Shown: positions 5,562 to 24,092 of the stretch, one piece after another | Numbering within the stretch: the stretch's first letter is position 1 | How the letters are laid out: the number at the start of each line of letters is the position of its first letter | Source of the DNA: Candidatus Jordarchaeia archaeon | Lineage (GTDB): Archaea > Asgardarchaeota > Jordiarchaeia > Jordiarchaeales > Jordiarchaeaceae | Direction of reading: 5' to 3' | DNA: 31,092 bases | NCBI GenBank assembly: GCA_029856435.1 | Contig: JAHQXB010000026.1 | Location: forward strand, 1 to 31,092 | Translations under genes and position numbers: made by a program | The notes under the pieces: generated by a model | Database searches by the model: none | The model's input: the letters and a program-made list of their open reading frames with translations, nothing else | What the model was told of the DNA's origin: nothing

Positions 5562-7046
5562 CGATGGGTAAACAAGAAGGTTTTTTAATGTGTTTGAATA
5601 ATCAATTATAAATTTTGGGCATATAAAAAGTTTTTAGCGCATTTTCGGATTTGGGCCTTTTTAAGGAACAATTTCTCTAGGAAAAGAGGTCCCGAATCCC
5701 TGCAGAAATAAGCCCTATTAACCATATGTTTAAACTACACTCCTATATAGCCCATATGTTTAACCGATATTCCCGTTGTGTAGTTTTTTGTTCTCTTCTA
5801 TGATTTCTTTTAAGGGCTTCCTTCGGGTTTTTGTTTACCCTCCTTCGTAACCGCTCGCCAAACTTCCTCTCCCTCCTCTCGCTCCCTCAGTATGCCACAG
5901 TAGGTCTCACACCCAACACTAGCTACAGCCTCACTTAGTTGCATCCAACCCCAACTTATCCGGGTACCCGCAGAGGAAGTTGAAGATGTGAATGGCGTCT
6001 GGGCGTGGAAAAGAATCCACCCATCCATAACGTTGCACCCGGTGATCCTAAGCCAGAGGCTCCGAAGCCCCCTAATGAGGTTCTCCAGATCGTTGTTTGT
6101 TCTCGGTACCCTCTCATCGTCATAGCAGTGGAAAAGCCCCTTCCACACAGATTCAACCTGCTCCACCACCTTCCTATACCTCACATCGCTCTCACCCTCC
6201 CTCCTAAAGAGTTCCATACACTCCCTAACTCGGGCTTCAACCTCAGCCCGAGAGCCTCCCCGTTCAAGAACACGCCGGAGTCTCTGGAAATCCCGGTAAT
6301 CATCCTTTAACTCCCTTTAACGAGGCTTCTAATCTTTTTTGTCCTTCACACTCTCAGCGAGGATTCCCTCTATCTCAAGTAGGGCATGGCGGTATTCGTC
6401 GTCCTGTATGTGGTCTGCCAGACATTTCCTCACGACTGTTCGCACCTGTTTCATCCGTTCGTATAGCCTCACGTAGTAGAGGTCATAGGGGAAGTCGTCG
6501 CAGGTCACTTCAAGTGCGTAGGCTACATGCTTGAGGATTTCCTTCTTCTTTTCCTGCTGAAAACAGTAGTCTACAAGAGTTTTCTGACCCCCCTGCCGAC
6601 CCATTTGAGTCCTGGAAAAAGGGGGATAGATAAATCTTTTTTCGGGAAAAGAAGGCTTTTTATTCCTTTTTTTGTCCCTCACCATCACCTGGTTGGCGGA
6701 GAAAATTTTTCGGAATTGCCACGAAGCCACCTCCTAGCTTTAGTTTTCACCCCCTCACCCTTCATGATTCCACCGAGCTGGCTGTAGCTTTGTCCCATAA
6801 GTTCCTTCCCCATATTCCTCAGGAGGTGGTACTGGCAGTACTGGTGCTTTACCCCGGGTAGAAGCTCCTCCACCACCTCCACTATGGAGGGCTGCATGTC
6901 GCTGACCACTGCCAAGGGTTTGCCGAACATCCCTAGGACCCTCTTGAGGATGGGCTTCAAATCATCTGAGGAGTTGCTCGTCGCAGCTTCTGTGTAGAGT
7001 ACGGTGCCTGAGAGTGCGTCTCGGAAGATGTAGAGGGGGTACCCGC

Positions 7047-21187: not shown

Positions 21188-22249
21188 TCACAAAAGTTTT
21201 TTTGCATATAAAAGTTCAGCGTTTAGAACTACGGCTCCAGCTGCGCCTCTGATAGTGTTATGACTAATTAGAGTCAAAAGTAAATGATTCTCATCAAATC
21301 CCTGCCTTACTCTTCCCACTGTTACACTCATTCCTGGAACTGTACCTGCCATGCGATCCAATCTTGGCTGAGGCCTGTCTTCCTCGTTTCTGACTATTAC
21401 GGGTTTTTTGGGAGCTGAGGGTAAGTTCAGTCTTTGGGGTTCCCCTTCAAATTCGCTGAGAACTTTTTTGGCTTCTTCAACATCTACTGGCTCCTTGGTT
21501 TTGATGAAAACGGTTTCAGTGTGTCCATCAATTACTGGTACCCTGTTACATGAGACCGCTATTTTGAAATCTGCAAATTTAACCTCCCCATCTTTGATTT
21601 TACCCAAAATTTTTAGGTTCTCCGTCATCACTTTTTTCTCTTCGTCTTTGATATACGGAATTATATTGTCCGTGATTAGTAATCCGGGGACGCCGGGGAG
21701 GCCTGCTCCCGAAATGGCCTGCATGGTACTTACATACACTGTATCGAGTCCGAAACGGTCATAAATGGGCTTAAGAACCATAGCCAAACCAATGGTCGTG
21801 CAATTAGGGTCAGTCACTATATAACCATCCCACCCTCTATTTTCTCTCTGTACTTCGATTAGTTGAAGATGGTCCGGGTTTACCTCTGGAATAACTAAGG
21901 GCACATCTTTTTCCATTCTGTAGGCGCTGGCGTTGCTGGCAACCACGCAGCCCACCTCTGCAAAATTCTTCTCAACCTCTTTCGCTATATCTGAAGGCAG
22001 GGCTGAAAAAACTAGGCGCGCACCCGTTTCTCGGGGGTCAGTATTTACCACCGTCATATCCCTTATTTCCTCAGGAATGTCCATAGGGAGGTGCCAGTTT
22101 ACGGCGGCTTCCTTGTACTTTTTACTAGCAGATCTTTCCGAAGCTGCGATGGAGACAATATTAAACCAAGGATGGTTATAGACCATTTCTATTAGTCTTT
22201 GGCCCACGGTTCCTGTGCAACCCAAAATTGAGACGTCTATCTTTTTCAA
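21188..22249 (-). CDS. asd: Aspartate-semialdehyde dehydrogenase
   Basis: [26 protein letters not shown] catalytic Cys, [15 protein letters not shown] and HNTIRGAAG motifs. Confidence 0.98.
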
Positions 22250-23481
22250 TCTTTAACCTCCAGATTCTTTTTAATTAGATCCGTTGCCTTTCCTTTTTCT
22301 TTTTGATTAACGAAAATTCTCACACTTGAGCTTATGGTCAGAATTCCAAAAATGTTGATTTTCGCTTTTCCGAGGAGACTTGTAACCGTATCAACTATGC
22401 CCGGTGAGGTTTCTAAATTTCCACCCTTAACAGTAATCATTGAAAGATTCTCGAAAAGAGAAATCGCCTTACCTAACCCCTTTTCTCTAATTGTCCTATG
22501 GATTGAGTTTACTACCTTTTTAGTATTTTCACCAGATATGTATAATATTAGAGATAAGGGCTCTAAAGCTGCGGATAAAATTTTTCCTCCCGCCTCTCTT
22601 ACCGCTGAAAGGATGGAGAACAACGCTTCGGGTTTAACAGCCTCTTCCCCAACTATTGTGATCATAGAAACATTAGTGTCACTGGCTAAAACCTGCAGTT
22701 CTGGGAAACCTGAACCTGTTATCACTGTTCCGGTAGCTGTTAGGTCTCCATTTTGAAAACCGACAATCCTTATCAGCATATCTCGAGGTTTGAACCATAA
22801 GGCCTTGGGATGGATTATTTTGGCTCCTGCTGAGGTGAGTCTAACCACCTCCTCTGTGTCTAGCGACTTTATGAGGGCAGTGCTCTCAATAAAGTCGGGA
22901 TCTCCCGTAAGAACGCCTTCCACATCCTTAACCAAAATTACTTCTTTGGCCGCCAAACAGTTTCCAATCAGTACTGCAGACGTATCACTTCCACCACGTC
23001 CCAGTGTGGTGATTTGGCCATGAAGAGTCTTCCCCAGAAATCCGCATACAACTGGAACCACCTGACTCTCTATCAAAGGAGTTAATTTTTCTACTACCGC
23101 CTTTTTTGTTTCCTTAACAAGGGGGTCTGCGTTTCCAAAGCGGTCGTTTGTAAAGATAGGCCAATACTCGGAGTAAGGGTCTATAGAAATACTCTTGACT
23201 CCTGCGGATCTCAGCGCCGAGGCCATCAGGCGGGCCGCCACCCTTTCACCCATAGACAGTATCTCATCCAGTTCCGCTGAGCTTATATTTCCCCCAGTAG
23301 ATCCTTCAGCTAACCTTAATAACTGGTCGGTGGTTCCCTTTAGAGCAGATACAACTACCACTACGTTCCTACCCTTAATGGTTTCCGCAACTACCATCTT
23401 AGCTGCTTTTACCAGGTCCTCACTGGTGGACAAACAAGAACCACCAAATTTAACCACGATGGTGTTGTCTGTATTCAACAT
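22246..23481 (-). CDS. lysC: Aspartate kinase with C-terminal ACT domains
   Basis: [30 protein letters not shown] and [11 protein letters not shown] motifs, followed by two ACT-like repeats. Confidence 0.95.
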
Positions 23482-23547
23482 AAAATCCCTCTAAAAACAG
23501 TTTTTGTTTGAATTTTTCAGAAATCAAATCTAAACTAAAAACAGTAC

Positions 23548-23697
23548 GTTGGCAAGGACTTAAAGCTAAATAAATTGGCAGGGCATCACCGCGCCACCAC
23601 GTCCAAGTTCGCTCCATAGATATTGGCAGGGCATCACCAATTCAAACCACCTAAATAATAGTGGTTCATCCTTATATTATACAAGGTATTAAATGTT
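23548..23697 (-). promoter_or_regulatory. 5' leader of the lysC-asd-aroA'-aroB' operon with direct repeats and uORFs
   Basis: Two exact 17-bp repeats (23574-23590, 23622-23638) plus a partial third (23548-23559). uORFs at 23669-23634 and 23634-23566. BRE/TATA-like CGAAACATTTAATAC on the minus strand near 23700-23686. Confidence 0.55.
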
Positions 23698-24092
23698 TCG
23701 CAAACACATCGTAATCTATGAACCTAAAGCATAATATTGAATATTCACCTTTAATTTTTCACATCGCCTTTTAGTTAAACTATTCCAAATTGGATTTGCA
23801 GAAAATGTCTTTTACATAGATTCTTTTTGGGGTTGCTGTCCTTACTTTTAATCGCAACACACAGTTTTGGGGGACTTTTTAAGTTGGAGGCAGCCTTTTC
23901 TCCCCCATTTTTAAACACCCATGTGTAATAAAAATGGAGCATTTGAAGACGCAAAAAAGTTGAGCAATGGAATTCAACTCCGCAATAGGCCAACATCCTC
24001 GGAAGCGTTGTTTAAATATGATGAACACCACAACGCTTTTTAAAGAATAATGTCAATTTATTCACGAACCTTGCTAATAAGAGGTGTCTAAA

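Follow-up and report, generated by a model that had tools for sequence, protein, structure and literature searches.

The 31,092-nt stretch of archaeal DNA analyzed here (the window) comes from genome G000 of the Freyarchaeia, the Asgard lineage also called Jordarchaeia. On its minus strand, the leader of an operon that begins with aspartate kinase carries two copies of a short module, made of the 13-nt core GAUG[C/U]CC[C/U]GCCAA and one sense codon. The module is also present ahead of aminoacyl-tRNA synthetase (aaRS) and amino-acid biosynthesis genes in other Asgard archaea and in Bathyarchaeia, and the codon directly after the core (the specifier) tracks the function of the downstream gene. 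We propose, at slightly less than even confidence, that at least two archaeal phyla share a T-box-like sensor that acts on the ribosome. In this sensor, made of the core and its specifier, shortage of a charged tRNA would cause a programmed -1 shift into a start-less frame coupled to the aaRS or biosynthesis gene, and the core may pair with, or mimic a partner of, the 16S rRNA neck strand around G926.

A conserved module in archaeal leaders

The curated set comprises about 80 instances in 31 leader clusters (about 65% identity) from Bathyarchaeia, four Asgard lineages and metagenomes. The core is kept in leaders of otherwise unrelated sequence. Its variation is limited to C/U transitions at two positions, by which the encoded peptide becomes M[P/S][C/R]Q. 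Because the core changes only between C and U and yet these changes alter the peptide, the constraint lies on the RNA and not on the peptide.

In the window, the two modules form the exact 17-nt repeat GGTGATGCCCTGCCAAT (23638-23622 and 23590-23574, minus strand), with the 48-nt in-frame period already described in the initial annotation, which was made from the letters of the window. No further occurrence of the 12-mer TGCCCTGCCAAT was found in the whole 3.54-Mb genome (42% G+C). The leader is present in five further members of the genus and in several metagenome contigs. Both repeats are invariant in all genus members; the spacer between them varies freely, with non-conservative changes in the peptide that it would encode. 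Genus-wide invariance and the occurrence of the same core in other phyla show that the repeats are not due to chance.

In a pattern search across the phylum, each of four genomes from a different Asgard genus (g17) proved to hold a single exact copy of the 13-mer GATGCCCTGCCAA, within a conserved leader located 3' of a TATA box and 5' of pheS. A single module precedes aspartate kinase in G009, which belongs to a sister Asgard family in the same order as the window's genome, and pheS is the gene behind the module in G016 and likewise in Asgard g9. Many copies were found in a scan of 301 Bathyarchaeia genomes and in metagenome contigs, and a general scan of genome contigs returned at least one Bathyarchaeia match.

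Searches of Rfam 15 at the gathering threshold with the window and 10 related loci gave no match to the T-box or any other family, and an E-value search with the leader returned only noise. No description of the motif was found in a full-text search of the literature, and no complementary partner of the core was found elsewhere in its own genome.

Specifier codons and downstream genes

Downstream genes were identified by NCBIfam. All pheS and pheA leaders found (more than 25 for pheS, from many unrelated leader families, and four for pheA) have UUU behind the core; the same codon is present ahead of indolepyruvate oxidoreductase (IOR) and in repeat 2 of the window. UAU is the specifier of repeat 1 and of the tar-transketolase-DAHP synthase operons L182 and L175, the first copy in L182 having UGG instead. 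Catalytic-type thrS is preceded by ACA in 28 Bathyarchaeia genomes and a full-length thrS by ACG, while UCA is found with serS, AUU with ileS and GGA with glyA. As a control, exact core matches inside coding regions were followed by arbitrary codons. Part of the metagenome search was pattern-biased to UAU and UUU; the scans of Bathyarchaeia and Asgard genomes were unbiased.

Two loci deserve separate description. In the G005-type Freyarchaeia (L006/L084 and L169), aspartate kinase is reduced to a short remnant with asd directly next to it, and the second module has the Thr codon ACA in place of UUU. Locus L182 (contig Ga0208154_10017, minus strand, about 6696-7034 as oriented) has two adjacent modules, reading MSRQW and MPCQYP followed by a stop, and then tar (TK0271 family), split transketolase genes and DAHP synthase. 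This operon is divergent from trpD-like and trpC-like open reading frames (ORFs), as judged by eye. From its sequence, L182 reads as an aromatic regulon in which the activator gene itself lies behind the sensor.

Overlapping frames in the leaders

The AUG of the core opens a mini-ORF of five to six codons, M-[P/S]-[C/R]-Q-specifier, and in nearly all single modules a stop follows zero to two codons later. A second frame, designated frame 0, runs one base upstream of the mini-ORF and is thus its -1 frame (GAU GYC CYG CCA A..). In 70 of the 80 instances, frame 0 runs from the core to the main start without a stop, compared with 0/80 for frame +1 and 2/80 for frame +2. Counted per cluster, the figures are 29/31, 0/31 and 2/31, respectively.

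Frame 0 is usually devoid of a start codon. About 14 frame-0 ORFs of 43-50 codons hold no AUG, GUG or UUG at all, and the same frame often has a stop one or two codons ahead of the core. At its other end, in most families, frame 0 terminates on the start of the main gene, either in a 4-nt overlap (AUGA) or 8 nt past the start, so that the upstream stop overlaps or abuts the downstream start as in translational coupling. The overlap reads GUGA in G002 and L202. In other leaders frame 0 is fused in frame to the product: to pheA, where the fusion is kept over four different spacer lengths, and to tar, where in L175 the TK0271 profile begins at frame-0 residue 19 with no canonical start upstream. 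Overlapping frames and a start-less -1 frame that leads to the product are what a programmed -1 frameshift site would have. A frame that has no need of a start, is kept open and ends at the next start points to entry by recoding.

Tandem modules are always in phase, with spacings of 48 nt in the window, 45 nt in G004, 39 nt in L202 and 18 nt in L182, and indels of 3 and 9 nt between tandem copies preserve the phase. A shift at either specifier would thus enter the same frame 0. In the window this frame crosses both modules and the entire leader, and ends at a UAA (23452-23450) about 30 nt inside aspartate kinase. The initial annotation had overlooked the start-less overlapping frame that reaches the aspartate kinase start, and could not have included the presence of the same module on Thr, Ser, Ile and Gly genes of other archaea.

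That annotation had instead focused on two short upstream ORFs (uORFs). Both are present as described, with the UGA of uORF1 (MNHYYLGGLNW) overlapping the AUG of uORF2, which encodes the peptide given in Table 1. Alignment of related leaders, which it had recommended, separates the two: the repeats are invariant in the genus and the core recurs in other phyla, while uORF1 and its UGA have no counterpart in other lineages. The AUG of uORF1 is only 17 nt from the TATA box, and the caution of the annotation about this short distance was justified, since the predicted transcript start lies at or after that AUG. Accordingly, uORF1 is probably not part of the device. The idea of translation-coupled sensing of aromatic amino acids holds in part. 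A translation-linked amino-acid sensor in the leader of an aromatic operon, with in-frame spacing that matters, agrees with our reading; the sensing, in contrast, would not be done by aromatic-rich peptides but by one specifier codon per module.

Proposed mechanism

We consider it probable, judging from the sequence, that a ribosome starved at the specifier codon slips by -1 into frame 0 and thereby carries translation to the main gene. In the window, transcription would begin about 30 nt upstream of repeat 1. A ribosome would initiate at the core AUG and read M-P-C-Q, after which its A site would hold the specifier, UAU in module 1 and UUU in module 2. With plentiful charged cognate tRNA it would read on to the UAG at 23568-23566, leaving the rest of the leader untranslated and the operon low. 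With cognate tRNA scarce, the A site would be empty and the peptidyl-tRNA(Gln) could slip by one base, from CAA to CCA. Such a slip is possible because an invariant C precedes CAA, and the invariant A at core position 13 would head the new A-site codon, which can thus never be a stop. The shifted ribosome would follow frame 0 to, or just past, the main start and drive aspartate kinase expression by coupling. Translation of frame 0 may also guard the transcript from ending at the U-tracts.

We infer the frameshift, the coupling step and the direction of control, the last of these (shortage turns the genes on) because of the gene classes and the in-frame fusions. The two in-phase modules of the window would act as an OR gate that responds to shortage of Tyr or of Phe. 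Such a gate suits aspartate kinase and asd genes that are reserved for aromatic synthesis by the ADH route.

Two other routes into frame 0 were considered and rejected. A +1 shift from the frame of uORF1 at its UGA was discarded, as other lineages have neither this ORF nor the UGA. Initiation of frame 0 at an AUU or AUA overlapping the specifier was discarded as well, since that place is taken by AAC in the Thr type and by AGG in the Gly type.

Several observations weigh against slippage at the specifier or against the wider proposal. The site is not a slippery heptamer of the X XXY YYZ type. It reads YGC CAA NNN, where only re-pairing of the P-site tRNA from CAA to CCA is available, and after the slip at C-CAA the pairing is restored at codon positions 1 and 3, two of three. 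A hairpin at the distance expected for frameshift stimulation (5-9 nt downstream) is found only in the Thr family, in the Ser leader L218 (z = -3.4) and in L244 and L263; most other families and Freyarchaeia lack it, and the median fold z is -0.1 for 39 leaders. The invariance of core positions 4-9 is not accounted for by slippage alone. Frame 0 is broken in a minority of leaders (L232, L281, L292, L320 and L326), and in the strain represented by an RNA contig a 1-nt insertion would stop frame 0 about 50 nt short of the AUG of aspartate kinase. Among the roughly 80 instances, a single ileS leader shows ACU, which is not an Ile codon, after the core. In addition, the instances were picked by context, the ambiguous L220, L237, L247 and L279 being left out of the counts, and both translation of the module and the trans-frame product are predictions.

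RNA structure of the leaders

The initial annotation had suggested attenuator hairpins with alternative pairing. No mutually exclusive terminator and antiterminator hairpins are conserved in the leaders compared, despite the U5 tracts, and the Freyarchaeia leader folds with z = -1.3. The suggested AACCAC/GTGGTT hairpin in uORF1 is lost in more distant genus members. The ATTGG/CCAAT hairpin fared no better, as repeat 2 and the Bathyarchaeia copies are devoid of its left arm; for the same reason we rejected a conserved hairpin UUGG/CCAA closing the core.

A hairpin in the Thr family begins at core index 21 with GGCC and shows one compensatory change, and the consensus fold of 28 Thr leaders has almost no covariation. 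Given its restriction to few families, we rejected a frameshift-stimulating hairpin as a general feature. Readings of the element as a C/D-box or k-turn, a fluoride riboswitch or a preQ1-like RNA were also dropped, because no Rfam match supported them and the second halves that they require are absent.

In 28 genomes of Bathyarchaeia, thrS has a conserved leader of about 180 nt (L297-L331, alignment A2), which contains, in addition to the module, a long-range GGAG...CUCC pairing and a CGCUG/CAGCG hairpin. The N-terminal codons of this thrS, AUGAGUGA, introduce UGA stops into each of the other two frames where ThrRS starts.

Complementarity to 16S rRNA

Variation restricted to C and U predicts a partner with G at both variable positions. 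Among Freyarchaeia rRNAs, the best core-complementary site is 5'-AAUUGGCGGGGGAGCACC in 16S rRNA (E. coli about 918-935), on the 5' strand of neck helix 28, which includes G926; in L360, the 16S rRNA of G005, it lies at about positions 975-992. The core can form 9-11 contiguous pairs with 5'-AAUUGGCGGGG of 16S, plus GGUG with CACC, and both variable positions face G. Duplex energies of the natural variants range from -25 to -30 kcal/mol. An 11-nt Watson-Crick run arose in 4 of 500 shuffles, and in 36 of 500 when G-U pairs were allowed. One Bathyarchaeia 16S copy is mismatched at the site. In the folded subunit, the 16S strand is paired as part of helix 28.

G926 contacts the P-site codon, and the segment is also the target of the ARCH915 probe. 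Pairing with 16S would explain the identity of the core across phyla, and it raises the question of mRNA-rRNA contacts beyond Shine-Dalgarno pairing. We regard the complementarity around G926 as a lead. Separately, the 5' end of 16S, UUGAUCCUGCCGGA, also resembles the motif.

Alternative explanations

The same codon-reading mini-ORF could work without any frameshift, if a stalled ribosome remodeled the leader RNA or blocked a termination factor (attenuation or translational de-repression) and the open frame 0 were a by-product. We regard this as unlikely. The specifier logic, the conserved AUG and the short mini-ORF would fit it equally well, the leaders have U4-U6 tracts, the GGAG/CUCC pairing of the Thr family could alternate with the main Shine-Dalgarno sequence, and a few leaders have a broken frame 0. 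It leaves unexplained, however, why frame 0 is stop-free in nearly all clusters and the other two frames are in none or two, why start-less ORFs of 43-50 codons end exactly on the main AUG, why in-frame fusions with pheA and tar survive indels, and why tandem copies keep a constant phase; moreover, conserved alternative hairpins were not found. A very improbable reading, in our opinion, is that of an untranslated riboregulator, T-box-like or pairing with rRNA, whose core docks on 16S rRNA or on tRNA and shows the specifier directly to the anticodon. The invariance of the core at nucleotide level across phyla, its two C/U positions (as expected opposite G) and the 9-11 nt complementarity to 16S all agree with this possibility. 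On the other hand, the conserved part spans just about 16 nt, lacking both a conserved fold and a UGGN to bind the tRNA 3' end, neither the T-box nor another Rfam family was matched, the 16S strand is engaged in helix 28, and this reading gives no reason for the invariant AUG, for a stop close by or for the frame statistics.

The initial annotation had also offered tandem operators or RNA-binding sites. Direct repeats 25-90 nt downstream of the predicted transcript start would suit a DNA operator located 3' of the promoter, for a Tar-like or Lrp-like protein for instance, or sites for an RNA-binding protein, and tar genes follow the motif in L182 and L175. Nevertheless, protein sites predict neither a match of codon and enzyme over Phe, Tyr, Trp, Thr, Ser, Ile and Gly nor any of the frame features. 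They would also call for a separate regulator for each amino acid, whereas the asymmetric core is the same across phyla. We consider it hardly credible that such sites account for the module.

Comparison with known systems

The archaeal module shares features with several known systems. In bacterial attenuation (trpL, pheL/pheA, pheM/pheST, thrL and hisL), a short leader ORF also contains the regulating codons, the ribosome senses charged tRNA, and the gene classes match (pheS, pheA, thr and aromatic genes). The archaeal module differs in that it has one specifier instead of codon runs, an invariant 13-nt core for all amino acids, and no conserved terminator or antiterminator hairpins in leaders that instead have a start-less frame reaching the main start. 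The several or tandem regulatory codons typical of trpL and pheL are not seen here, as uORF2 has one Tyr and one Phe codon in module context and single modules have one specifier. The T-box of Firmicutes resembles the module in combining a common scaffold with a variable specifier codon, in regulating aaRS and biosynthesis genes, and in occurring in tandem on some operons. However, it is an untranslated RNA of about 200 nt that binds uncharged tRNA through Stem I and the UGGN bulge, whereas the conserved archaeal part is about 16 nt long, with an AUG and signs of in-frame reading. Neither a Stem I specifier loop nor a UGGN antiterminator bulge was recognized in the leaders, and no conserved stem was seen.

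The +1 shifts of prfB/RF2 and antizyme and the -1 slippage at hungry codons share with our proposal a slow A-site event that chooses between the zero-frame end and a shift into the product frame; in our case, a single tRNA in the P site would slip next to an empty A site. The archaeal site differs from programmed frameshifts in not being a canonical slippery heptamer. One-tRNA -1 slippage at hungry codons was documented by Gallant and Lindsley, as reviewed (PMC8211752, PMC5009743), and the sole archaeal -1 frameshift in a 2021 review is that of fucA in S. solfataricus (PMC8211752). In the literature searched, hungry-codon shifting appeared only as an error or laboratory effect, and no dedicated natural sensor for amino-acid genes was found. 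If the frameshift proves true, the module would be, to our knowledge, the first natural sensor built on hungry-codon slippage.

Two further systems are relevant. The cysteine-responsive leaderless attenuators of mycobacteria also have very short 5' ORFs that sense one amino acid via their own translation and control downstream genes; they are reported to use poly-Cys runs (bioRxiv 10.1101/834739) and, unlike the module here, are not known to have a shared nucleotide core, an overlapping coupled frame or a multi-amino-acid family. Tar (TK0271) is a DNA-binding transcriptional activator of aromatic amino-acid genes in Thermococcus (PMC6737238). It is the known archaeal control of aromatic biosynthesis, and tar homologues are the first genes behind the motif in L182 and L175. 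Tar acts as a protein on DNA, whereas at those two loci the module precedes the reading frame of tar itself and is joined to it through frame 0.

Implications

Amino-acid-specific control of aaRS and biosynthesis genes is textbook knowledge in bacteria (attenuation and T-box) and in eukaryotes (uORFs). We know of almost no such control in archaea. The element described here would fill this gap with one modular device common to Asgard archaea and Bathyarchaeia, in which a single scaffold serves all specificities and one codon sets each of them. It would also predict the controlling amino acid of each operon in uncultured lineages. For the window, the prediction is a role of aspartate kinase and asd in aromatic synthesis, under control by Tyr or Phe. 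In addition, gene calling would mis-annotate leader frames that have no start, as well as the extended N-termini of the pheA and tar products.

The locus in the window

The features of the leader and operon are listed in Table 1. Pfam confirmed the operon of the initial annotation: aspartate kinase, asd, a DeoC-family aldolase (ADH synthase) and DHQ synthase II.

Table 1. Features of the leader and operon in the window (minus strand), from the promoter to the end of the operon.
Feature	Position	Strand	Sequence or reading	Basis or conservation
Promoter block with B recognition element (BRE) and TATA box	23686-23700	minus	CGAAAC ATTTAATA	Part of the block kept in the genus alignment
uORF1	23634-23669	minus	MNHYYLGGLNW and stop; frame +2 relative to the core	
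Frame 0	23450-23641	minus	Open frame ..GDALPIS...GDALPIY..; UGA 23644-23642 just upstream; no start before module 1	
Leader ORF in frame +1 (uORF2)	23566-23634	minus	MPCQYLWSELGRGGAVMPCQFI and stop; holds both specifier codons; stop one codon past UUU	
Module 1 core	23623-23635	minus	GAUGCCCUGCCAA; AUG 23634-23632	Invariant in the genus; core also in other phyla
Specifier codon 1	23620-23622	minus	UAU (Tyr), codon 5 of the mini-ORF	
Module 2 core	23575-23587	minus	GAUGCCCUGCCAA; AUG 23586-23584; in phase with module 1	
Specifier codon 2	23572-23574	minus	UUU (Phe)	
Degenerate third copy	23548-23557	minus	CCUUGCCAAC (10-nt form CCTTGCCAAC); without AUG; in frame 0 as UGC CAA CGU	
A/U-rich stretch	23493-23541	minus	U5 tracts at 23541-23537 and at 23497-23493; frame 0 reads through both	
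Shine-Dalgarno-like sequence and aspartate kinase gene	22246-23491	minus	GAGGG 23491-23487; AUG 23481	Pfam
Aspartate kinase-asd-ADH synthase-DHQ synthase II operon	down to 19318	minus	Aspartate kinase is gene 1	Pfam

The BRE/TATA block TTTGCGAAACATTTAATACC, which includes the TATA-like TTTAATA at 23693-23687, is unchanged in five of the six aligned genus members, the sixth being without coverage there. From the usual archaeal distance between TATA box and start, the transcript likely begins at about 23664. A metatranscriptome contig of 550 nt, from a 95%-identical relative in a sediment sample, has its 5' end at 23647 and covers the leader and the 5' part of aspartate kinase. The RNA evidence consists of assembled contigs and was treated as weak, and parts without RNA cover were given no weight.

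The third copy and the U-rich tract pointed out in the initial annotation both exist. The former is limited to close relatives and has been lost in G002 and G005, and it may be a decaying or nascent module. The U5 tracts are possible archaeal termination signals. Both copies of CTGTTTTTAG are well conserved in the genus, with single substitutions in G005, and AGAGGG ahead of the aspartate kinase start codon is invariant, or nearly so, in the genus.

Additional observations

DNA near-identical or related to the window region 22900-23950 is found mainly in hot-spring metagenomes of many studies (runs X1-X22), and in one sediment sample, perhaps the sample of origin.

Some core matches were set aside. 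One-mismatch copies in genus g17 are all coding and were counted as chance. About 28 metagenome matches in an unrelated multi-copy element and six at an enterobacterial locus were treated as chance multiplied by copy number. The multi-copy element, present as about 28 diverged copies in a few metagenomes, combines a hairpin, GCTAGCGAGAG...CTCTCGCTAGG, with an identical 19-mer, GGTGATGCCCTGCCAATAT, behind it in each copy (L162-L168, L173, L174, L179, L180, L183-L186, L189, L191, L192, L195, L199, L203-L205 and L207); the copy in L185 adjoins TTAGGG-like telomeric repeats. Another 19-mer, TTGGCGATGCCCTGCCAAT, unrelated to the archaeal element, is conserved in apparent coding sequence (L049 alone was inspected) at L049 and at least about 60 other loci, the sequence being common to many genomes of Mycobacterium and other Actinomycetota.

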